Source of the DNA: Chloropicon primus | Taxonomy: Eukaryota | NCBI GenBank assembly: GCA_023205875.1 | Contig: CP060768.1 | Coordinates: forward strand, 434,001 to 498,000 | Direction: 5' to 3' | Length of the DNA stretch: 64,000 nt | Shown here: positions 730 to 64,000 of the stretch, piece after piece | Layout: the number at the start of each line of letters is the position of its first letter | How positions within the stretch are numbered: the first letter of the stretch is position 1 | Translations under genes and position numbers: made by a program | Notes under the pieces: generated by a model | What the model saw: the letters and a program-made list of their open reading frames with translations, nothing else | The model's database searches: none | What the model was told of the DNA's origin: nothing

Positions 730-1008
730 CTCCTTCACAGCAACCAGCCACGTGATCCCATCATCATCATCATCACAGACCCACCCCCCCAAAAAAAAAC
801 AAAAAACGCAAAGTCTCAGGGTCTCCCATCCTCCTCACGACGCCATTCCCTCCGAGTGAGGTGTCATTCGAAAGAGGATGAGACAAATCATGCGATGGTG
901 ACGCCTTCCTTCCCCCCTATCGTCCCCCTCGTCGCTGAGAACGACCTCGAACGTACCTCGTGCGCGCTCCTTTCGCTTCCCGCCACACAAGATCTCTAGA
1001 CCACAGGA

Positions 1009-1860
1009 TTGTTGGAGGTTTTCCCCTGTTGGTGGGATTCCAGTGTATACCAGTTTGGTCACACCCAAAGGACAACCCACAAAACGTTTTCTCGTTCTCA
1101 CTTGCTGGACAAGGCACTGGTAAAAAAACTAGCCTCGCGAGAGGAAGGGAGGAGGACGCCGAGTGAAACCCTAGCAGTCATGGCGCGATCAGGGAAGCGC
1201 CGTAAGAAAAAGGAGAAGCAGGGGAGTGGCTCGACGAGTTCCACAAGGAGGTCGCACTCTGGCGAGAGTCATGCTCAGGGCGCTTCGAAGTCGGGGCAGG
1301 AGTCTCCGACGACGGAGCCGTTACGTCGGTTCTGGAATCAGGGCTTGCAGTTGCTCTACTCGTTGTGCCTGCTTCCTATCGCGGACGACCCCGCCTCTGC
1401 GGGTGAGGGTTCGAGCACGCCTCGCAAGAAGCGGGGGCGGAAGCGGAAGGAGAAGCCGCTGGACGACCCCGCCTCTGCTTTCGAGGAGGGTTCGAGCACG
1501 CCTCGCAAGAAGCGGGGGGGGAAGCGGAAGGGGAAGCCGCCGGAGGCGGCTTCCTCTGCGGGTGAGAGTTCGAGCTCGTCAGGCAAGCCTCGCAAGAAGC
1601 CTCGCAAGAAGGGCAAGAAGAAGAACAAGAAGAAGGGTAAGAAGAAGAAGAACAAGAGGGGGAAGAAAGCAGGGAAGCAGCCGGGTGGCTTGGCGGACGA
1701 CAGCGTGAAGAAGACCTGGTTCTCATCGATCAAGAGAGAACTTGAAGAGGTAAAGTGTCCGAAGACGGGATGGAGGTCGTGCTTGAACCTTCCAGAAGAT
1801 TCTGTGGTATCCGTCGAGACATTGCAGTCGCCCGCCAAAAGGAAGAGGGGCAGAAACTGA
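1009..1860 (+). CDS. Lys/Arg-rich ORF with NLS-like repeats; probable N-terminal part of the Fanzor protein, out of frame by -1 (first ATG at 1180)
   Basis: Repeats of STPRKKRGRKRK, a poly-K tract and KKTWFSSIK; overlaps the Fanzor ORF by ~100 nt in a different frame. Confidence 0.5.
   Translation: MLEVFPCWWDSSVYQFGHTQRTTHKTFSRSHLLDKALVKKLASREEGRRTPSETLAVMARSGKRRKKKEKQGSGSTSSTRRSHSGESHAQGASKSGQESPTTEPLRRFWNQGLQLLYSLCLLPIADDPASAGEGSSTPRKKRGRKRKEKPLDDPASAFEEGSSTPRKKRGGKRKGKPPEAASSAGESSSSSGKPRKKPRKKGKKKNKKKGKKKKNKRGKKAGKQPGGLADDSVKKTWFSSIKRELEEVKCPKTGWRSCLNLPEDSVVSVETLQSPAKRKRGRN
1382..1610 (+). repeat. About three ~78-81 bp in-frame direct repeats
   Basis: Unit GGACGACCCCGCCTCTGC...GGGTTCGAGCACGCCTCGCAAGAAGCGGGG... 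at ~1383 and ~1461, with a degenerate third copy at ~1542. Confidence 0.85.
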
Positions 1861-3347
1861 AGACCTCCAAGCTATTGTCGGAGCGAACGGTGATACGGAC
1901 GAGGAAGCTGAGGATGCGCTTGAACCCTGAGCAGGCGAAGTGCCTTTGCAACTGGATGGGAGCTGCGCGTTTCACATACAACAAGTGTTTGGAGGCGGTC
2001 AAGAAGGAGGGTTTTCCGCTGGTTTGGACCGTCCTGCTGGACAGATTTGTGACGGCCAAACCGCGACGCCCTGAGGTCTTTGAGGGGCTGGAGAAAGAGC
2101 TGAAAGAAATCCAATGCTCTCCACGGCCATGGACAAAACAGGAGGCAGAGCTTTTCGCGGCCAGAGAGAAGAGACTCGAGAGCCAAATTGGAGGCAGACG
2201 ATTTCGCGCCGAAGTGGCCAAGGACCGGGACTACGTTAGCGGGGCCTTTGTAAATCAGAAGCATCCTTGGCTGAAGGATACCCCCTGTGCCATCAGACAA
2301 GCTGCCGTGCGAAGTCTCATCAAGGCATGGGATTCGAACATCGCGAAGCAGGAAGCGATGAAGGAGCGCGGCGAGGAGAAGGGGCACCGCTTCGTTCTCA
2401 AGTATCGTCAACGTCAGCAACCGAGCTCTTGGACCATTGAAATTGATGCAAGAGAGTTAAAGAACGTGGAGACGATCGAAAGGCCAAACACGAGGCACAA
2501 GGATGACACCAAGCACAACAAACGACGCAAGTGGACCAAGCTGGAGGTGTTCAAGAAGAAGATGGCCGGCGGGCCCCTGTACTTGACGGAGGAGATCCCC
2601 GGGGGCAAGATCGAGGGTGCCGTGAAGATCACAAGAAATCGCCTTGGGCAGTTCCACATGCACATTCCCATCGCGACGCCATGGGATCGCCTGCCACCCC
2701 TGAAGCCTGAGAACAAGCGGAAGGTTGTCGCCCTGGATCCGGGAGTCAGGACCTTTCAGACGTCGTACTCGCCGCAAGAAGGCGTCGGGGAGTATGCCAC
2801 GGGCGAGCGAGGCTTCGCGAGGCTGTTCAACCTCTGCTGGAGGATTGATGAGATCATTTCCGAGCGCAAAGACCCAAAGGTGAAGCTCCCTTACCTCGAC
2901 CGCCGCGACTTGAAGAGACAGCAATACGCCTGCATGGAGAAACTTCGAGGTCTGACGAACGAGCTTCACAAAAAGGTAGCCAACGATCTATGCAGGAGGT
3001 TCGACACAATCCTCCTCCCGGAGTTCAAGTCCCAAGACATGGTGAAGAAGAACAACAACGGGAGACGCCGAGTGATCAGGAAGAAGACGGCTCGCACGCT
3101 CTTGACGTTGAGGCACTATGCGTTCAGAACGTTCTTGGCTTCCAAGGTGCTCTTGCACGGCAGTGAGCTGGCGATCGTGACGGAGGAGTACACCTCCAAG
3201 ACCTGTGGCAGGTGCGGACACATCAAGGACAACCTGGGTGGAGCAGAGGTGTACAAGTGCCAGAAGTGTGGCTTCAAGTGCGGTCGGGATGTGAACGGGG
3301 CACGCAACGTCCTCCTGAAGCACTTGCGTCAACCAAAAAGTGTGTAA
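1755..3347 (+). CDS. Fanzor2 / IS607-family TnpB-like RNA-guided DNA endonuclease
   Basis: N-terminal OrfB HTH-like RTRKLRMRLNPEQ...WMGAARFTYN; RuvC-I KVVALDPGVRTF; RuvC-II FDTILLPEF with the rearranged Glu in VTEEYTSKTC; zinc ribbon CGRC...CQKC; RuvC-III RDVNGARN. Confidence 0.93.
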   Translation: MSEDGMEVVLEPSRRFCGIRRDIAVARQKEEGQKLKTSKLLSERTVIRTRKLRMRLNPEQAKCLCNWMGAARFTYNKCLEAVKKEGFPLVWTVLLDRFVTAKPRRPEVFEGLEKELKEIQCSPRPWTKQEAELFAAREKRLESQIGGRRFRAEVAKDRDYVSGAFVNQKHPWLKDTPCAIRQAAVRSLIKAWDSNIAKQEAMKERGEEKGHRFVLKYRQRQQPSSWTIEIDARELKNVETIERPNTRHKDDTKHNKRRKWTKLEVFKKKMAGGPLYLTEEIPGGKIEGAVKITRNRLGQFHMHIPIATPWDRLPPLKPENKRKVVALDPGVRTFQTSYSPQEGVGEYATGERGFARLFNLCWRIDEIISERKDPKVKLPYLDRRDLKRQQYACMEKLRGLTNELHKKVANDLCRRFDTILLPEFKSQDMVKKNNNGRRRVIRKKTARTLLTLRHYAFRTFLASKVLLHGSELAIVTEEYTSKTCGRCGHIKDNLGGAEVYKCQKCGFKCGRDVNGARNVLLKHLRQPKSV

Positions 3348-3520
3348 CTCCTCAGGGTTGCACATACGTTTGTTAGTACGGGCTGCCGTGCGTGGGCGGA
3401 AGTATTCGTTCATGTACGGTGGAATGGTCGTGGTAGGGCCGAATTACCCTGCCGAGAAACTTACAAACTCGGTGAAACGACCTTTGCAGAAAACTAACAG
3501 GTAAGTAGGGGCCGGACGGT
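3340..3520 (+). ncRNA. Fanzor omegaRNA: scaffold to ~3500, predicted guide from ~3501; the 5' end may overlap the ORF
   Basis: Conserved with the second copy up to AAAACTA(A/G)C(A/G)G, then abruptly divergent. 18-bp G-U-rich stem at 3383-3422; GGTCGT/ACGACC pairing (3426-3431/3477-3482); TTTGTTAGT/ACTAACAGG pairing (3369-3377/3493-3501). Confidence 0.8.
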
Positions 3521-29888: not shown

Positions 29889-30463
29889 TTTGTTCTTGTT
29901 GTTCTTGTTGTTCTTGTTGTCGGAGAGAGAGGAGGTGTGTGCTGACGTGAGACCCCGTGCGTGCGTGCGTGCGTGCGTGCGTGCGTCTCCTCCTCCTCCT
30001 CCTCAACGGGGCGTCGCGTCGTCCAACCAAGCGAGAGAGAGGCGCGTGTGCGTTACTCGTAACCGACGCCGACCGGACGACGGCGGGAAAAAACCCGACG
30101 GACGGGTAACGTCACACGATCAAAATGAAAAAAATCCCTTTCGAGATTTTTATTTTTTTGATTTTCGAGATCTCCTTTTGTTTTCCCCGTAACCGCAAGG
30201 TGCGATTCTCTGTTTGTTTTGGTCTCCGAAAAATTAGGAGAATGCGTCGAGGAGCGAGGTCAAACCCTAGCGCTGGCTCTTGAGGCCCAGAAGTGCGAAG
30301 CAGAGCGGCGACCAAGACCGAGGACCGAGAATTGCATTACGTACAAGGTGAGGGGGGATTGAGGTTTTGTGTTGTGTTGGGTTTGGTTTTGTTTTGTTTT
30401 GTTTTGTTTTGTTTTGGAGAAAAGCCTGACCACGTTTTGGGTTTTTGGGTTTTGGTGGAAGAT

Positions 30464-31087
30464 ATGGCGATGATGATGAGGAAGAGGGTGGCGTTGTGCC
30501 TCCTGGTGGCGGCGTTGGGGGTGGCGACGGGGGCCGTGGCCCAGGACATCCCTGACAGCTGCAAGAGCCTCGACCCCAGCACGCTGGACACGTCGGATCC
30601 CTCCGCGTTCGCGACCCTGCTGCCTTGCACGGGGTGGGACCAGACGTGCCAGAGCAACGTCCTGGCCGCGGGGGCCTCGTGCATGCAGGAGATCCAGGCC
30701 ATCAGCAAGTGGGCGAACTCCAGCAGCGTCCAGAGCGACCTCGCGTCCGAGACCGGCCTGAGCGCCAACTCGACCGACGCGGACGTGAAGAACACCACCG
30801 CGAGCGTCACCCCGGACCAGGTCAAGGCCGACCTCGACGCGAGGATCCCTGACCTCAAGACGGCCCTCGGAGGGTGCTGCGGCGGGGGCATCACCCCCAC
30901 CTGCTGCGCGGCGATGACCCCCGTGATCTCCGGAAAGTGCCTCTGCCAGCAGAAGCCCGTGGAGCTCCTCAAGGGGGTCCTCGGCCAGGACCCATCCGAG
31001 TTCATCGGGGTCGCGGCCGAGGTCCTCGGGAAGCTCGGCTGCAACGCCCTCGATGGTGCGCAGGTCTACCCCCAGTGCGAGGCGTGA
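30464..31087 (+). CDS. Secreted cysteine-rich protein of unknown function
   Basis: Signal peptide (VALCLLVAALGVATGAVAQ), CC...CC...CLC pattern, host-like GC3. Confidence 0.75.
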   Translation: MAMMMRKRVALCLLVAALGVATGAVAQDIPDSCKSLDPSTLDTSDPSAFATLLPCTGWDQTCQSNVLAAGASCMQEIQAISKWANSSSVQSDLASETGLSANSTDADVKNTTASVTPDQVKADLDARIPDLKTALGGCCGGGITPTCCAAMTPVISGKCLCQQKPVELLKGVLGQDPSEFIGVAAEVLGKLGCNALDGAQVYPQCEA

Positions 31088-31229
31088 GCAGGTGAGCGAT
31101 TGATTGATTGCTGGGAGGAAATGGATCGCCCATTTTGGATTTTGGAGGGATGGACTCGTGTTTGTTGAGGAAAAAGAAAAAAAGAAAAAAAAGCTTTAAA
31201 AAGTTTTGCGTGTTCATCCAATATTCATC

Positions 31230-31390
31230 CATGCCCATGGCCTTTCTTTCCGCTAGTTTTGTGCAAAGGTCGTTTCAGTTTGCGTTTCTCGAAATGACCA
31301 TTCCGCCCTTAGCAAGCAAGCAAGCTCGCGAGCAAGGGCAGCTCGTACTAACAAACGCGTGTGCAACCCTGAGGAGTTACAGATTTTTTG
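31230..31390 (-). ncRNA. Second Fanzor omegaRNA (scaffold ends ~31250; predicted guide from ~31249 downward)
   Basis: Same conserved blocks as copy 1 (TAACTCCTCAGGGTTGCACA, TTTGTTAGTACG, GGAATGGTC, GAAACGACCTTTGCA) with structure-preserving substitutions. Confidence 0.75.
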
Positions 31391-31632
31391 GTTCCCACAA
31401 GTGCTTGAGAAGGATGTTGCGTGACCCGTTCGCATCCCGACCGCACTTGAAGCCACACTCCTGGCACTTGTACACCTCTGCTCCACCCAGGTTCTCCTTG
31501 ATGTGTCCGCACCTGCCACAGGTCTTGGAGGTGTACTCCTCCGTCACGATCGCCAGCTCACTGCCGTGCAAGAGCACCTTGGAAGCCAAGTACGTTCTGA
31601 ACGCATAGTGCCTCAACGTCAAGAGCATGCGA
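31377..31632 (-). pseudogene. 5'-truncated Fanzor fragment (catalytic Glu, zinc ribbon and RuvC-III only)
   Basis: LLTLRHYAFRTYLASKVLLHGSELAIVTEEYTSKTCGRC...RDANGSRN, nearly identical to 3092-3347; homology stops abruptly at ~31632. Confidence 0.92.
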
Positions 31633-31944
31633 ATCTTTGGTGGTCGCGCTTAGGATGTTCTGTCCCATGTCCGTTGTGCTCTGACAGTTCGACTCTTCCA
31701 TGCCAAGTACCTCGTTCAACACTCCTCCTGCCTTCACAACGAATTCGTCTTGGACCAGGCTCACGGCCTTCGATGAGAAGCTCTCCAAGTCGCTCTTCTC
31801 GTTGGAAATTTTGCAAGACAAGCTGCTGAGGTTGGCATCCTCCTCTTCGAGCAAACCATCGATTGCCTTGCAATCGACCTTGCCATCGACGTTTTTAGGA
31901 TGGAACGAACGAACGATGTGCCGGCGGTCAACGGAGACATACAT
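31633..31944 (-). other. Unidentified coding-like fragment fused to the truncated Fanzor
   Basis: Open frame MYVSVDRR...SATTKDS with no recognisable motif, unrelated to Fanzor copy 1. Confidence 0.35.
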
Positions 31945-31974
31945 AGTGTGGTGGAGGAGGATAGAATATTTCAG

Positions 31975-32031
31975 CTTTAGGATTGCTTTTGGGGGATTAG
32001 GATTAGGATAGTCTTTAGGATCGGCTTAGGA
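31975..32031 (-). repeat. Degenerate telomere-like (CCTAA/TTAGG) repeat patch
   Basis: TTTAGGATTG...GGATTAGGATTAGGATAGTCTTTAGGATCGGCTTAGGA; 18 bp identical (inverted) to 37914-37931. Confidence 0.75.
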
Positions 32032-34837
32032 GTCCTGTAGCATCATGTTGACGAGCATTGGATGCGGGGTCACTACCTCTTTGGCCTTTCTGTTCTCGGA
32101 CTTCTGCCGGCCGGAGCCAACGTTCACGCCGCCTCCTTCTGCGTTCTCCTTGTACCCCTTGCCGATTTTGCAATCGTTATGGCTGCAGGACAAGCACCTC
32201 AAGCCCCTTGAACCGTTGGTTGGGATCAAGGGGATCGAGGGGATCTTCTCGATCAAGGCTTTCTCGGACTCAGGTTTCTTTGTACACGGAACACAAAACC
32301 AGAAGCCAATCGTGTTCTTCAGTTGTGTCATGCCAATTTCCTTGCTCATGTCCCAAAGCTCCTTCTTGTCGACAGACTCCGTCGCTTTCAAGAAGCATCC
32401 GAACGAACACCACTGGTTAAAGCCGCTTTTGAATATGAAACGATGGCAGTACCAGCACCAGTTCGACAAGAGGTAAGTGGGATTGTGCCCAGCTCGATCA
32501 CGTTCCTCCCCCGGAACCGGTGTCAGAGCTCCTGTTTTGACCAAGGGGCACTCAGCGTGGCCAAGATAATCACAGCAAACACAGCGCAGAGCTTGAATAC
32601 CGTCTGTAGTAGGAACTTGAGGAAACTCCTTCATCGGCTCCCTTGCTTTGGTCTTCCTCTTCCCTTTCGTGTTGGTCTTGGCCTGTGTCTTCCTTGTCGT
32701 ACCAGTGCTCAAGGGACTGCTGCTGCAACGTTCACAGGGACATGCAGCGGCATCAAATTTGCGAAGCTCTCTCTCCCTCTCCCCGCCGTCCTCGGCGTCG
32801 CTGTCCACCAGAATGCAAGGACGACTCCTCTTGCACATGTCACAACCACAAATGCATCGAGTATGTGCTGGAGCGGTGTTCGCGGTGCCTGTTGTCCTGG
32901 ACGACTTGCGAGAGCATTTACCAGCGCAGGGGCATTCGAAGAAATCTTTTTGAGTCACAGAGATCGCGGTTTCTGGGAAACATTCATTCTCAAACACGAC
33001 ATCGACATGTTCTCCCTTTAGTGCATCCGCAAAGTACTCAAAGACTCTGCTCAATGCGTCTTCATCCAAGCCGTGTCCATCACGGTTTTCAAACAACTCG
33101 TCCCTCACGGAGTGAACGTGGCAGTATTGCCTGTAGGTCTCCAGGAACTCCATGTGCTCCTCGCGAAGAATGATGTCGTAGTTCGCTTCCGTGATGGAAC
33201 AAGCAGCGACGAGCACACGAACTGTGGGTTGGTTCTTCCATGCGCGGACGAGATCACTCGCCCGTTGCTCCACAAAGCGCTTTCCAAGAAGATACTCCTC
33301 ATCTCCAGCGAGAACCTGGGCTACGGCCTCTTGAACGTGTCTCTCCTCGGTGACGACGGCATCCACTTCTGTCAAGCACGCAACCGTTGCTATGTTCGCC
33401 TTACAGCACCTTTCCAAGAGCGTCCCGAGCGTCGCAAGCTCCCTTGTAAGCCGATCTGCACGGGTGCAGAGTTCTGCGTATTTGCCCTCGTCGCAGACCT
33501 TCTTCACCCATTCTTGGACGGCAGCCTCCTCCGAGGTCGAGCCTCTGCAAAGGTCCCAATTGTGATTTCAATCACCGGCAGCTTCCGCTTAGCGCAACAT
33601 CCTTCTGAAGGTTGTCGCGCACCTTGAGAGGACGTGGAGGAGTAGGCACCGTTGGACATATATCGAAGTAGACTTGGCGACGTCAGTTCCAGGCGACGTA
33701 CGGGCAATACCTACGAGGAGAAGGGGTTTCCCGTGCTTCTGCTCCCCCGGCTTCTCCAGATTCTCCAGCTTGTGCCTCAGGACGTGCTCGACGTGTTCGA
33801 CGAGGAGACAAAGTTCCTCAGAAGTGTGTTGGCCCGATGCTACAGAACAACGGGTGGCGCCGGACTTGAGCATGCAGTGCGACGCCGAGTACACGGCTTG
33901 CCCGTCCGAGGTGCTTGCAGCCTTGCTCATGTACTTTTTGAGCTCCTCTTTCTTTTCCTCCCCAATCAAAGCTGCTGCATGGGACGTCGGGATACACGCC
34001 AGTATAGAGGCCTGCCCTGCGCGCTCAGCAAGGTAGTCGAGGTCCTTGTAAGCTTGTGGCCGTCTCGACAATCGCGACAAGGCAGCTACAAGAAGCGCGC
34101 AAGGCTCGCCCTTCTCCTTCGCAAGGGCAAGAGCTTTCGTAAGAACTTTGCGGTCCTTGAGGCATCGCGAGCGGCTGGCGGTCCCAAGCTCCACGAAACG
34201 AAATGCTTTCACCTGTTTAGGAAGATCTTTGCCGAGCAACGCGCTTGAGATCGTGGCCGCCTGACCAGCGAGCTTGTTCCCAAGCCCCTCCTGCACAATG
34301 GACTCGCGGAGGAAGACGATGCAGTGGGTCAGTCCTTTCAAGCCCTCAACGAGCTCCAGGTAGACTCCGCCACGGCCTCGGACCACGCGGACCAGGGTCA
34401 GCTCCTCAGGCTGGCGAGTTCGCTCCGCCCGTGTACCCTCGCGTGCAAGGGTGGGCCGCGGGCCAGCTGATTCGTCTGCGAAGCGAAGAGAGGCAATAAG
34501 TCCATCCGCATTGAGAAGCGTCGTCGGATCCACGTTTTCCTCGATGGCGGCCATCTCCCGCTCCCTATGAGGTCCCGCGGAGGTCGCCATGGCCACTGTG
34601 CAAGCGTTGGTGTCCAGGCTTGCCGCACGGCTGCCCGCTGCCCTGCAAGTGGGTGAAGACAGAGACATTGGCACCACAATCCTTGGGCGCCACCCGCCAT
34701 CCTTGGGCGCCATCCCCCTGGAGAACCGCGGCCGGGGTGGCGCCACCAGCCCCTTCTTCACATGACGTCCCAGTATTCGTCAGTCTCCTCTTCTTCGTCG
34801 GCAACCCGCGGCTGTAGTATTCCAGGAGGTAACTCAT
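32026..34837 (-). CDS. Spliced gene with two tandem serine-recombinase (resolvase-like) catalytic domains and C-terminal Cys-rich zinc-finger modules; intron 33545-33622; 5' end uncertain
   Basis: Domain 1: CIVFLRESIVQ...AGQ...FVE...DRKVL...LLVAALSRLSR. Domain 2: LVGIARTSPG...SIYVQ...LCTRADRLTRE. A 78-nt GT..TTTGCAG intron removes the only two in-frame stops between ORFs 33589-34761 and 32026-33507. Confidence 0.7.
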
Positions 34838-35122
34838 CGCTTTCTCTCTGGTCGTGGTCTTCTCGTCCCCACTCGTCGGCCGCCTCGTTCGCGGCTCTGG
34901 CGTTACGGCGGCTCTCTTTCTCTCTCCAGCTCCCGCCAGGTCACACACCTCGCCGTCCTCCTCGCCGTTACGATCTTATTGTCCTAGTATAATTAGACTA
35001 AACCTAAACCTAGTATAATTAACGTCTCTCACAGAACCCTTGTCTCACGGAGCAAGAGGTAAGGCGGCTGTTGTTTCGCCGCGGTGTTGTTTCGACACCG
35101 GATGTGATCCCCGTACTAGAGC

Positions 35123-35214
35123 CTCACCCAGGCGGGGTCGAACCGCCGACCTCCCGATTTCTCCCGATGAGGGGATAACAGTCGGACGCTCTAACCAAAC
35201 TGAGCTATGGGTGA
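35123..35214 (-). tRNA. trnN: tRNA-Asn(GUU) with a 17-nt intron (35159-35175) at the canonical 37/38 position
   Basis: Acceptor TCACCCA/TGGGTGA+G, D-arm AGCTCAGTTTGGTTAGAGC, anticodon arm TCCGA-CTGTTA^A-TCGGG, T-arm GGCGGTTCGACCCCGCC. Confidence 0.93.
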
Positions 35215-35599
35215 TTCGCACGGGGTTTCTACTCTGCTGGAAAAAAACAAAGAATTATGCTATGTATACTGTTGTTGCGCAGAGTAGAAACTCCACCTTA
35301 GGATCGATCGCCCTCTTCAGAGGTGCATGGATCCCCAGGGTAGTCGGAGGGGAGGGAGAGCGAAGGATTGGCGGGGAAGGCAACGCAGTCCAACGTGGGT
35401 CTCTTCTCTTGATCCTACCACCGGCGTTGACCAGCGTTGGTGGAAGGCTTTGAGCGCGAGGCGAGAAGTCCATTCGTGCATGGATCCCCATGGATGTAGT
35501 CGTCGGGTACCTCAGGAGGTCCGACGACTACCCTGGGCCTGAAACTCGGAGGGGAGGGAGAGCCTAACTAAAGGAAAGGCACTTTGTTGAGCATTGCCT

Positions 35600-35870
35600 T
35601 CGTTGCCTTCTTCCTGAGATTCGTGGGCTTGTTGTCGCTGCTGCTGCCGAAGCCTTCCTCCTCCTCGTCTGATCCTCGGTTCGCCTCGATCCAGTCGGCG
35701 TCGGCGATGTCATCATTACCGTTCTCCTCTGAAGATTCTATGCAACTGTCTGGGTCCGAACCACAAGGCGGAGGCAGGTCCTGGCTTCGAGCCCACTTGA
35801 GAACATCAAGGTGCCCTCCGTAAGCTGCCCATTCGCAAGTCTCCGCGGGACCTTTCTCACCTGACAGGCC
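35600..35870 (-). pseudogene. Fragment of an ankyrin-repeat family gene (3' end)
   Basis: Translates as WAAYGGHLDVLKWARSQDLPPPCGSD...; strong nucleotide similarity (inverted) to 58925-59070. Confidence 0.7.
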
Positions 35871-36384
35871 TGGAAGTGACGAGGAGGAGGAGGCACAGGA
35901 AACCGAGGAGGAGGAGGAGGACTACTCTGATGACGAGTACGCCGACCATTCTGACGACTTGTTCGACGATGACGGTGATGGTTGTTGACGACCGATCTCC
36001 TAAACCCAGCATCCTCATTCATCCTCAGTGTAAATCTGAACAAAAAACAACAAGAACCAAACTACACTACACTACACTACACCACGCGGTGGTCAGTCAT
36101 CCTATTACTACAACAAAAAAACTCCTCCCTCCCTCCCTCCCTGGTCATCATCACCTCATCATCATCCAAAGCAAAACTAAAACACCAAAAGAAAACTTCG
36201 TCGTCGTCGTCGTCAGTATCGCCACCATCACAACTTTCTCTCTCTCTCTTTGATGCTGATGCTGTTCATCATCATCATTATTCATCTGTCCTAAACCTTA
36301 AAGACAAGCCTTGCACGGTTAAAAACCCAAGACCCGCCGGATTGGCCTAGGTTTTCTTTTTCTGTAGCAGCAAGTGATTTGAGC

Positions 36385-37910: not shown

Positions 37911-38230
37911 CAATCCTAAGCCGATCCTAAAACCAATCCTAAGCCTAAGCCGATCCAGAAACCCATTCTGAGCCGCTCCTAAAACCATCCTAAGCCGCTC
38001 CTAATCCTAAAACCATTCTGAGCCGCTCCTAAGCGATCCTAATCCTAAAAACATCCTGAGCTGCTCCTCAACTCATCCTAAGCCGTTCCTAACCGCTCCT
38101 AATCCTAAAACCCATCCTAAAGGATCGTAATCGATCCTAAAACCATCCTGAGCCGCTCCTAATCGATCCCAAAACACCCAATCCCCCCCAAACCATTCCC
38201 ATTTTCCCCAAAAGGCCTAACACCTAAACC
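37911..38230 (+). repeat. Degenerate telomere-like satellite (CCTAA core; TCCTAAAACCATCCTAAGCCGC-type higher-order unit)
   Basis: Dense run of CCTAA/CCTGA cores with recurring AGCCGCTCCTAATCCTAAAACCAT. Confidence 0.85.
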
Positions 38231-58399: not shown

Positions 58400-59072
58400 A
58401 CCATCATAACGGGCGAGCACGAGGGCGAACCAGGAGGGGAACGGGAACGAGAGAGAGAGAAACGAAGAGGACGGGAGCGCGAGGAGGAGGAAGTGGTGAG
58501 GATCTGACGACGACACGAAACGAGAGAGAGAGGCAGAAAGAGATCGAGGAGGAGACCACCGAGGAGGGGAGGCGCAAGAGGCAGAGGACGGAGCCCAAAC
58601 ACGCACTGGATTTGCTGCCAGGGAGTGCGTGGCTCCTGGTTTTGAAGAAGCTGAGCCCCCACGACCAACTTGCTTTCGGGTTGACCTGCAAGGCGTTCCT
58701 CGAGGCGGTGACGGCGACGGCGAGCCCCAAGTGGAAGAAGAAGGCTCTTCCTCTGAGGACGGACCTGAGACGTGAAACATTGTTCGAGGAGATGCCTAGC
58801 TTCAGCATGGGCTGGTTCCAGTGGGTGGCGAGCCAAGGGAACCCTTTGGATATTAAAGGTGTGAACTTTGGCGTGGTAGGATGTTCAGGCGAACCGCATG
58901 AGTGCCGGGCACGCTTGTTCTGGTGCAGCTGAAGGAGGTCGCCTTGATGTTCTCAAGTGGGCTCGAAGTCAGGATCCGTCTTGTGATTGGGACCAGTGGG
59001 TTGCGTAGAATCTTCAGAGGAGAACGGTAACGATGACATCGCCGACGCCGACTGGATCGAGGCGAACCGATG
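58400..59072 (+). pseudogene. Degenerate F-box-like/ankyrin-repeat family gene
   Basis: LDLLPGSAWLLVLKKL...DQLAFGLTCKAF (F-box-like), then an out-of-frame AAEGGRLDVLKWARSQDPSCDWD with a stop. Confidence 0.65.
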
Positions 59073-59195
59073 AAGGTGCCACTCGGGCTCGTTCCAAACC
59101 AGGTTGCTTCAAAGGTAGTTCTAGGTTTGAGTGTGACCTCGTGCTATCTTGGCTTTGATTAAGGAAATAGCGAACTTTTGTCCCATGGACGTTCT

Positions 59196-62341: not shown

Positions 62342-62470
62342 GGTCGGTTTAATAAGGGGGGGGCGGGGGGGTAATAATAATGAGGATGATGATGAAATTG
62401 GTTAGGGTTTTCGTGGTTTTCGTGGTTTTCGTGGTTTTAGGATTGGTGGTGGTTTTAGGATTTTAGGGGA
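62332..62470 (+). repeat. Degenerate telomere-like TTAGG(G)/GGTTTTCGT repeats
   Basis: GTTAGGGTTTTCGTGGTTTTCGTGGTTTTCGTGGTTTTAGGATTGG...TTTTAGGATTTTAGGGG. Confidence 0.6.
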
Positions 62471-62855
62471 GAGGATGATGAGAAGGGGGGGAGGAAGCGG
62501 TCACAAGCGGTCGCTGTCATCATCGGAACGGTTCCAGTCTCCGTCAGCGTCAGCGTAGTTTCCCTCACCCTCCTCTCAGGACTTCCAATAGTCCTGGCGG
62601 TTCCAATCGGTAACGATGTCCTCGCAGAGCTCCATGAACCTCGCTGTTTGCTCGGCAGACCAACGATTGATGGGGTCTGCGTCGTTGCTGGGTCGTCGAA
62701 CTTGCGCTGGCTTCTTCTTCTTGACCTCGGCCATGTACTTGGCCTTCAATGCTTTTCGGCTTGGGATATAATCTTCCTTCTCGAAAAGTTCGTGCTCCGC
62801 CAACCATTCCTCCCGCAAAGATATCCAATGGCCCTGGCTTCGAGCCCACTGAGTT

Positions 62856-64000
62856 TTAGATCTCCTTCTCCGACTCCTCCCCTGGTTTCGCTTGCTCCGT
62901 ATTCACCTCGCTATTGTTCTCAAGCATCATGAGTATCATGTTGACGAGCATTGGATGCCGGATCACTACCTCTTCGGCCTTTCTGTTCTCGGACTCCAGC
63001 CGGCGGGAGCCAACGTTCACGCCGCCTCCTTCTGCGTTCTCCTCGTACCCCTTGCCGATTTTGCAATCGTTATGACTGCAGGACAAGCACCTCAAGCCCC
63101 TTGAACCCTTGGTTGGGATCAAGGGGATCGAGGGGATCTTCTCGATCAAGGCTTTCTCGGACTCAGGTTTCTTTGTACACGGAACACAAAACCAGAAGCC
63201 AATCGTGTTCTTCAGTTGTGTCATGCCAATTTCCTTGCTCATGTCCCAAAGCTCCTTCTTGTCCACGAACTTCGTGGCTTTCAAGAAGCAACCGAACGAG
63301 CACCACTGGCTGAATTCGCTTTTCGTGATCAAGCGGTGGCAGTACCAGCACCAGTCCGAGAGGAGGCAATCGGGATTGTGCCCAGCTCGATCACGTTCCT
63401 CCCCAGGAACCGGGGTCAGAGCTCCTGTTTTGACCAAGGGGCACTCAGCGTGGCCAAGATAATCACAGCAAACGCAGGGCAGGGCTTGCATACCGTCTGT
63501 AGTAGGAACTTGAGGAAACTCCTTCATCGGCTCCCTTGCTTTGGTCTTCCTCTTCCCTTTCGTGTTGGTCTTGGCCTGTGTCTTCCTTTTCGTGCCAGTG
63601 CTCAAGGGACTGCTGCTGCAAGGTCCACAGGGACATGCGGCGGCATCGAATTTGCGAAGCTCTCTCTCCCTCTCCCCGCCGTCCTCGGCGTCGCTGTCCA
63701 CCAGAATGCAAGGACGACTCCTCTTGCACATGTCACAACCACAAATGCATCGAGTATGTGCTGGAGCGGTGTTCGCGGTGCCTGTTGTCCTGGACGACTT
63801 GCGAGAGCATTTACCAGCGCAGGGGCATTCGAAGAAATCTTTTTGAGTCACAGAGATCGCGGTTTCTGGGAAACATTCATTCTCAAACACGACATCGACA
63901 TGTTCTCCCTTTAGTGCATCCGCAAAGTACTCAAAGACTCTGCTCAATGCGTCTTCATCCAAGCCGTGTCCATCACGGTTTTCAAACAACTCGTCCCTCA
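62856..64000 (-). CDS. Second copy of the double-serine-recombinase/Cys-rich gene (3' part only; continues beyond the window)
   Basis: Near-identical to 32039-33107 over ~1.07 kb, with a different C-terminus. Confidence 0.85.
   Translation of the reverse strand, partial: RDELFENRDGHGLDEDALSRVFEYFADALKGEHVDVVFENECFPETAISVTQKDFFECPCAGKCSRKSSRTTGTANTAPAHTRCICGCDMCKRSRPCILVDSDAEDGGERERELRKFDAAACPCGPCSSSPLSTGTKRKTQAKTNTKGKRKTKAREPMKEFPQVPTTDGMQALPCVCCDYLGHAECPLVKTGALTPVPGEERDRAGHNPDCLLSDWCWYCHRLITKSEFSQWCSFGCFLKATKFVDKKELWDMSKEIGMTQLKNTIGFWFCVPCTKKPESEKALIEKIPSIPLIPTKGSRGLRCLSCSHNDCKIGKGYEENAEGGGVNVGSRRLESENRKAEEVVIRHPMLVNMILMMLENNSEVNTEQAKPGEESEKEI

Follow-up and report, generated by a model that had tools for sequence, protein, structure and literature searches.

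A decayed multi-copy element with a double serine recombinase behind a tRNA gene of Chloropicon primus, probably a eukaryotic DNA transposon of a kind not described before

We analysed a window of 64,000 nucleotides from contig CP060768.1 of Chloropicon primus (all coordinates are positions in this window) and focused on a locus at 31254-35214, all parts of which lie on the minus strand. Read along that strand, the locus comprises a tRNA gene, a gene for a protein with two serine-recombinase domains, a CCTAA-rich patch, a short tail, and the 3' end of a Fanzor gene followed by its scaffold (Table 1). A preliminary description of this DNA, made from the letters alone, had named the same parts in the same order, together with a frame between the patch and the Fanzor end (31558-32025) that yielded no Pfam match; the tRNA gene, which we identify as tRNA-Asn, lies just outside the end coordinate of 35120 proposed there for the element, and the CCTAA patch proved to be present without being specific to the element. 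Copies of the element sit 0-10 nt behind different tRNA genes and have several left ends. The locus is probably a decayed copy of this multi-copy element, likely a DNA transposon moved by its serine recombinase, to which the Fanzor remnant was likely joined later.

With GTT as its anticodon (35177-35179) and an intron of 17 nt at the usual position (35159-35175), the tRNA gene is one for tRNA-Asn; ARAGORN missed the gene when run without introns and, with introns, misplaced the intron and called tRNA-Ser. Copy numbers were estimated from the DNA runs X1 and X2, with single loci in X1 at a depth of ~119; X3 and X5 are RNA-type runs, and X4, labelled as DNA yet showing spliced joints and uneven depth, was left out of these estimates. 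Depth is flat over tRNA-Asn (117 in X1 and 111 in X2) and rises at 35121: the tRNA gene is a single locus, and the multi-copy left end begins 1 nt behind it. Among the matches listed, seven loose-end rows beyond the left end resolve into six distinct 30-letter flanks, all from one sample (X1, X2 and X4). Under a strict test of B box and spacing, three of these six are co-oriented tRNA 3' ends, which we take to be Leu-, Arg- and Asp-like, located 0, 5 and 9 nt from the element; 660 of 127,940 30-mers of the window pass the same test, giving a P-value of 2.7e-6. The flanks are unlike one another and unlike tRNA-Asn, indicating that the target is a position rather than a sequence. A single-locus tRNA gene with a repeat starting 1 nt behind it, together with the other tRNA flanks, identifies tRNA genes as targets rather than cargo, in line with the integration site envisaged in the preliminary description. 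The genome holds 46 tRNA genes in 17.5 Mb.

The left end is connected to the 5' leader of the gene by contigs and joints. Its outermost part, present in several copies (35055-35121), forms two related hairpins with CGAAACAAC loops at 35070 and 35086, and the left ends of other copies lie at 35054, 35057 or 35082; the core left end has a hairpin near 35035-35060 and the direct repeat TAATTATACTAG at 35010 and 34984. One flank without a tRNA still carries the final 9 nt of a tRNA end that borders another copy. The idea that both junctions hold a core dinucleotide GC was rejected, as AC stands there in a further copy that shares the left end of the window copy. The position at which most copies depart from the window path (31812) and the core left end at 35054 show a weak inverted likeness (TGC...AGACAAG), making them candidate true ends. 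No run of four T occurs within 222 nt downstream of tRNA-Asn, that is, there is no T-run terminator directly behind it. A 12-bp perfect inverted repeat lies just upstream of the tRNA gene (35225-35291).

In X1 the recombinase gene reaches 8.9 times the single-locus level (~9 loci) and the 5' leader 12.9 times (contig 34846-34920). A 419-bp deletion of domain 2 (33293-33711) is found at 4.5 times (~4 loci) versus 4.3 times for the intact form, which indicates that defective copies were multiplied, as expected if they are mobilised in trans. In part 1 of File S1 of PMC12301720, the basis of our locus lists, the family corresponds to two C. primus-specific orthogroups with 11 loci in strain RCC138 and 9 in strain CCMP1205, all but one of the entries being annotated as hypothetical proteins. 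Three RCC138 loci and one CCMP1205 locus in that list have no similarly numbered partner in the other strain, which, as far as annotation goes, suggests recent insertions; these four are 03g27050, 14g72430, 16g76820 and 02p16300.

Members of the family are near-identical proteins of ~950 aa encoded on many C. primus chromosomes. Three of them (P0014, P0015 and P0017) match the Pfam Resolvase domain (PF00239) in two stretches at 41-43.5 bits, against a cut-off of 23.3, bearing out the double serine recombinase of the preliminary description; the two halves of the window copy each match weakly, below the cut-off (E = 0.0022 and 0.0066). Relative to the majority form, the window copy lacks 17, 1, 1, 10 and 9 nt at 34621, 33627, 33584, 33542 and 33473, respectively, and these five indels result in two stops inside domain 2, which is intact in the near-identical P0017. 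The published gene models P0006 and P0007 fuse the 5' part of the recombinase to a ferrochelatase and an FAD oxidoreductase, respectively, and are probably truncated copies that annotation has merged with genes of the host.

A search of 1.84 billion representative proteins returned eight matches at E up to 0.001, and a follow-up search uncovered a second clade from metagenome sources that includes three full-length proteins of 1106-1178 aa. A Pfam scan of these three found no TnpB and no other Pfam domain, and the distant relatives gave no Pfam Resolvase match either. Two of the full-length relatives align with 27% and 25% identity along most of the length of the family. Both clades have R-x-S and R-x-x-R in both domains, with R-x-S kept in 10 of 10 rows covering domain 1 and 9 of 9 covering domain 2 (the motif numbering is the one we assume for serine recombinases), and have one Cys cluster in common. 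Scans of JGI metagenomes, IMG/VR and GTDB and a phage tblastn found no relative, and PDB sequence searches gave nothing meaningful. Given the Resolvase domains above the cut-off and the catalytic motifs, the family is assigned at the sequence level to the serine recombinase (resolvase) superfamily, whose enzymes cleave and exchange strands by way of a phosphoserine.

A structure model built from a 14-row alignment is usable for residues ~150-310 only (a model from the single sequence had a predicted local distance difference test, pLDDT, of 33). For the predicted domain 1, the five best of 48,161 VIA chains are serine recombinases (Z 6.0-6.6, root-mean-square deviation 3.1-5.0, 101-129 aligned residues), with unrelated rows directly below at Z 5.9, and Foldseek gave a probability of 0.99 (E = 3.5e-3); domain 1 is thus predicted to fold like serine recombinases. 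In the Atlas, residues 140-660 lead to resolvase clusters at 0.91, which we treat as a lead. An HHalign comparison of domains 1 and 2 scored 13.2, within the range of shuffled sequences (up to 15.8) and not significant, so that a recent duplication of one domain into the other was rejected. The Cys-rich C-terminus, which had no Pfam or Atlas match, is presumably zinc-binding on our reading of its motifs, and no helix-turn-helix match was found in Pfam for the family.

At the other end of the locus, the Fanzor 3' end at 31337-31632 is 94% identical to positions 3092-3387 of a solo Fanzor element near the start of the window. The remnant lacks the RuvC-I DPG motif and keeps only 3' motifs, and hence cannot be a nuclease; its scaffold runs to the right end at 31254 and still folds. 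In the long scaffold stem (31300-31345 in the remnant, 3385-3435 in the solo element) pairing is kept though the letters differ. An abundant scaffold variant in X3 and X5 lacks 59 nt with GT..AG ends (window 31277-31337) and is a shorter member of the family or else a product of splicing.

The solo element (1008-3496) has the DPG motif (LDPG at 2733) and the TEEYTSKTC motif, with a shifted RuvC-II glutamate and a zinc finger, and it matches a Table S3 protein of PMC10711439 over the part displayed. It is flanked by the 5-bp target duplication ACAGG, the left copy being the sole occurrence of that 5-mer within 601-1250 (the left boundary is sequence-based). No duplication partner of the remnant's right flank was found at a left end. 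Judged by motifs and similarity, the solo Fanzor and the remnant are assigned to the published Fanzor2* family. The preliminary description had the recombinase possibly mobilising the solo Fanzor in trans, which is unlikely because of the 5-bp duplication at that copy, since insertion of IS607 elements leaves no duplication (PMC6188088). Inside the solo element, a frame rich in Lys and Arg and containing internal repeats (1000-1860, plus strand; no Pfam match) lies upstream of the Fanzor frame (first ATG at 1770) and overlaps it; it may be an N-terminal extension reached by splicing. Among the orthogroups of PMC12301720, OG0000020 and OG0000026 (20 and 18 proteins, most of them hypothetical) form another family restricted to C. 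primus, a candidate for the transposase of Fanzor2*.

Several observations define how the remnant relates to the element. A contig of X3 covers 31812-32397 at full gene depth, so the tail is common to most copies up to ~31812, and most copies depart from the window path at 31811; the X1 depth of 265 at 31799, 2.2 times the single-locus level, corresponds to ~2 of ~9 loci that carry the tail beyond (the depth of 466 at 31591, blurred by contig ends, was not used). The junction itself is real, being bridged by an X5 contig (31597-32092) that spans the gene end, the tail and the Fanzor piece. The two published strains have 30 and 25 annotated Fanzor loci, and none of the 11 and none of the 9 recombinase loci lies within three genes of one, a count that unannotated remnants would escape. 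Recombinase loci lie 14-17 genes away from a Fanzor more often than expected (4 of 11 and 3 of 9; P-value ~0.03-0.05), a signal that was set aside because the threshold was post hoc, the null approximate and the strains not independent. The second recombinase copy in the window lacks a Fanzor downstream, as had been pointed out before. The link of other copies to tRNA genes or Fanzors, which the preliminary description proposed to check, is thus seen for tRNA genes, in the three flanks above, and is absent for annotated Fanzors, with the tail beyond 31812 at ~2 loci. The Fanzor piece is likely a later add-on rather than the original partner; since ~2 loci share the tail next to the remnant, a secondarily fused recombinase-Fanzor unit may have moved.

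Table 1. Features of the locus and related features of the window
Feature	Position	Strand	Evidence and remarks
tRNA-Asn(GTT) gene	35123..35214	-	Rfam tRNA, 53.5 bits, E 1.3e-9
Left-end extension, found in several copies	35055..35121	-	Depth step at 35121, loose ends, fold, repeat positions
Core left end and 5' leader	34838..35054	-	Leader common to ~13 loci
Double serine-recombinase gene, ~950-aa protein	32026..34837	-	ATG 34837, stop 32026; tblastn with P0014 and P0017; five indels here
Serine-recombinase catalytic domain 1	33877..34326	-	R-x-S 34300-34308; SRLSR 34063-34077; Pfam, motif columns, structure match
Serine-recombinase catalytic domain 2	33373..33723	-	R-x-S ending 33694; DRLTR 33442-33456; frameshifted in window copy
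Cys-rich C-terminal region, several CxxC clusters	32185..32934	-	One cluster (CWxCH...CxxxCF) common to distant relatives
CCTAA-rich patch after stop codon	31977..32026	-	Not element-specific
Tail	31633..31976	-	Most copies share to ~31812; ~2 loci beyond
Fanzor2* 3' remnant	31377..31632	-	PF07282, E 9.8e-19; RuvC-II glutamate, zinc finger, RuvC-III aspartate
OmegaRNA-like scaffold and Fanzor right end	31254..31376	-	Alignment and fold; variant of solo scaffold; single-locus flank contig 30425-31283
Solo Fanzor2* element, coding frame 1746-3347	1008..3496	+	ACAGG at 1003-1007 and 3497-3501
Second recombinase copy, 3' part, different C-terminus	62856..64000	-	Runs off window; without tail, without Fanzor downstream

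The second recombinase copy matches the first at 95.7% over 62932-64000. Behind it lies a short frame (62576-62902, minus strand) with a weak Myb-like match (PF15963, E = 0.042), and the N-terminal stretch of the relative P0019 looks, by eye, like this frame. The CCTAA patch was rejected as a signal of the element because the window has four such clusters, the largest at 37915-38158 (18 copies in a loose ~30-nt array); this one and the cluster at 62402-62463 are telomere-like. A multi-copy gene fragment, which we take to be ankyrin-like although Pfam gave no match, occupies 35317-35921, upstream of the tRNA gene, and recurs at 58925-59073; a similar stretch follows the second recombinase copy near 62845.

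Considering the probable reading of the locus as a decayed serine-recombinase transposon, we envisage that intact copies are cut out and inserted again as double-stranded DNA and, in the manner of serine transposases, duplicate no target sequence. With its two domains fused, a single chain would contribute half of the catalytic tetramer, plausibly its rotating pair; dimers of IS607 have been proposed to form such a pair (PMC4058570). The occurrence of different tRNAs at a near-constant distance argues for positional targeting rather than a shared attachment sequence. By analogy with Skipper-2 and TRE elements, the B box or the Pol III machinery could guide such targeting, with the Cys-rich tail as the likely contact. 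The choice of ends would be loose, so that flanking DNA gets captured. The Fanzor remnant would most likely stem from a deletion or recombination between the tail of the element and a nearby Fanzor2* copy, an event that would also have removed the tRNA terminator; the first T-run past the Fanzor right end is 51 nt away.

A number of points weigh against this account. Two of the six flanks, among the matches listed, show no tRNA in 30 letters, and a fourth flank, in which a T-run follows a tRNA-like end, is the consensus of two contigs and does not pass the strict motif; the count of three in six is itself drawn from these matches, the table having 15 further loose-end rows. All flanks come from a single sample, and their contigs span the left end only, none being tied to a complete gene. 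The left ends are ragged (35054, 35057, 35082 and 35121) and the junctions of the left flanks share no dinucleotide, both unlike precise serine recombination, and neither a family right end nor an empty site was seen in the contigs. In domain 1 the usual Asp before the second Arg pair is replaced by Ser or Asn, and fold support is limited to this domain, as the pLDDT of domain 2 is below 50. Finally, the strain differences come from annotation and from part 1 of File S1 only.

The alternative that survives best, which we nevertheless consider unlikely, is that the composite 35121-31254 is a young subfamily that moves as a unit, with the Fanzor right end as its own end and the same tRNA targeting. 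By the same account, equally unlikely, an IS607-like layout has been rebuilt, in which the omegaRNA is expressed and takes the downstream flank as its guide, usable by a Fanzor protein in trans. Both flanks of the composite are at the single-locus level (117 and 119), the tail at 31799 is at 2.2 times that level with two sequence variants at 31799-31800, and the long left end is multi-copy; however, the contig at 2.2 times was not seen to extend as far as 31633, where tail and Fanzor piece meet, most copies diverge from the window path at 31811, and the tail is missing from the second window copy. An RNA-type contig of X5 joins the gene end, tail and Fanzor piece, and the scaffold still folds. 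In the joined empty site, GAGG would directly precede the guide, and the motifs of Fanzor2 are rich in G (PMC13565253), whereas the T-run 51 nt past the right end is far for a tRNA terminator and fits a local deletion better.

Movement of a tRNA-targeted element by another enzyme, either a DDE transposase or a retro-mechanism acting in trans, with the double recombinase as passenger or resolvase, appears quite improbable. Between the ends no gene other than the recombinase was found, both of its active-site motifs have been kept in proteins with 25-27% overall identity, and the window copy is bordered by neither a target duplication nor a poly-A end. This alternative would accommodate the variable left ends, including the copy holding 9 nt of another site's tRNA end, as well as the TG...CA reading of the core left end and of a putative right end at 31812, with their weak inverted likeness; targeting of tRNA flanks is, moreover, well known from retroelements (PMC5006619).

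The preliminary description itself favoured an ancestral eukaryotic IS607-like element with a recombinase and a full Fanzor, internally deleted here and also mobilising solo Fanzors, which we now regard as very unlikely. The order of recombinase, Fanzor and scaffold is that of IS607, Fanzor2 frequently occurs together with a serine recombinase (PMC13565253), and published work reports no autonomous partner of the C. primus Fanzor elements (bioRxiv 10.1101/2023.08.09.552727). A Fanzor as the regular partner is nevertheless argued against by the absence of annotated Fanzor genes next to all recombinase loci in both strains, by the lack of an IS607 TnpA profile match, by six other left flanks that do not end in GG, by the three full-length distant relatives without TnpB, and by the 94% identity of the remnant to a free Fanzor family that has 5-nt duplications. 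A chance pile-up of unrelated insertions beside a tRNA gene, for which the ankyrin-family fragment and other repeats nearby might speak, is hardly credible given the repeated tRNA adjacency of other copies (P-value ~3e-6), which refutes it for the tRNA link unless the loose-end contigs are assembly chimeras; the Fanzor part, though, may well have come to lie there by chance.

The element is probably a DNA transposon of a kind not yet described from eukaryotes, and the family is possibly a new superfamily. A far-reaching version, which we put forward tentatively and think improbable as a whole, is a new superfamily spanning at least two distant marine lineages, with a tRNA-steered single-chain double recombinase, of which a Chloropicon subfamily captured a Fanzor right end and omegaRNA and thereby rebuilt an IS607-like unit. 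If the preferred reading of a serine-recombinase transposon is correct, it would add a second type of serine-recombinase DNA transposon in eukaryotes, one whose protein is differently designed and that does not depend on Fanzor, and targeting of tRNA 3' flanks, known from retroelements, would have arisen in a recombinase DNA element in a genome with just 46 tRNA genes. A single-chain two-domain recombinase would allow a direct test of which subunits rotate together in strand exchange, and a native eukaryotic enzyme that inserts ~3 kb behind tRNA genes without breaking them could serve safe-site integration in algae.

We found no published description of the double-recombinase family in a literature search that did not cover Repbase, most subscription journals, the 2019 C. 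primus genome paper, Supplementary Figure S3 of PMC10711439 or the bioRxiv supplements. Resolvases of giant viruses (Pithovirus LCPAC304, Dasosvirus, Gaeavirus and Yasminevirus) are the best viral Foldseek rows (E = 1.9e-6 to 8e-4), at 13% identity, with a low-confidence model and no sequence relative in IMG/VR, and offer a weak lead on origin only. The transposase of Dada elements is of the DDE type. Dada are DNA transposons targeted to tRNA and other small RNA genes (PMC8869645) and share the preference for tRNA genes with the C. primus family; they insert inside the gene by sequence, with one target type per lineage, whereas the C. primus family lies outside the gene, at several tRNA types, and at our locus tRNA-Asn is intact and only resolvase domains were found. 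Cryptons resemble the family as eukaryotic DNA transposons with a recombinase instead of a DDE transposase, for which a circular intermediate has been proposed (PMC13565253), but differ in having an unrelated tyrosine recombinase and a shared terminal motif in place of tRNA targeting. Retroelements of tRNA flanks likewise live in a gene-dense genome and insert at a set position behind tRNA genes of many types, Dictyostelium Skipper-2 targeting 8-23 bp and TRE3 ~100 bp downstream (PMC5006619); they encode a reverse transcriptase and an integrase or endonuclease, in contrast to the serine recombinase alone of the C. primus element.

The C. primus Fanzor2* elements have inverted repeats and a 5-nt duplication of variable sequence; they are described as non-autonomous, and no partner has been reported for them (PMC10711439; bioRxiv 10.1101/2023.08.09.552727). 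The solo Fanzor and the remnant are members, with such a duplication at the solo copy; Fanzor2* is described as Fanzor-only, the main text of PMC10711439 (Yoon et al. 2023) does not contain 'tRNA', and its available passages make no link to a serine recombinase. According to a 2026 review, no eukaryotic DNA transposon other than IS607EU is known to use a serine recombinase (PMC13565253). The C. primus family shares with IS607 and IS607EU the catalytic motifs and, as predicted for domain 1, the fold of serine recombinases and, at the window locus, a Fanzor 3' end and scaffold downstream. IS607 elements also lack terminal inverted repeats and pass through a circular double-stranded intermediate. 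No 5-bp duplication was seen around the composite 35121-31254, though the true right end of the family is not fixed. IS607 TnpA is small, with an N-terminal winged helix (PMC6188088), versus a ~950-aa chain with two catalytic domains and a Cys-rich tail in C. primus, and the family had no IS607 transposase match in NCBIfam at E up to 1. TnpB or Fanzor2 is the usual second gene of IS607EU, whereas a Fanzor is absent from most copies of the family. IS607 inserts at GG (PMC13565253); the window flank ends in GG, and the six others end in TA, TA, AA, AG, AG and AC. Unlike IS607, the C. primus family sits in tRNA flanks; it appears to work like a serine-transposase element yet does not conform to IS607.

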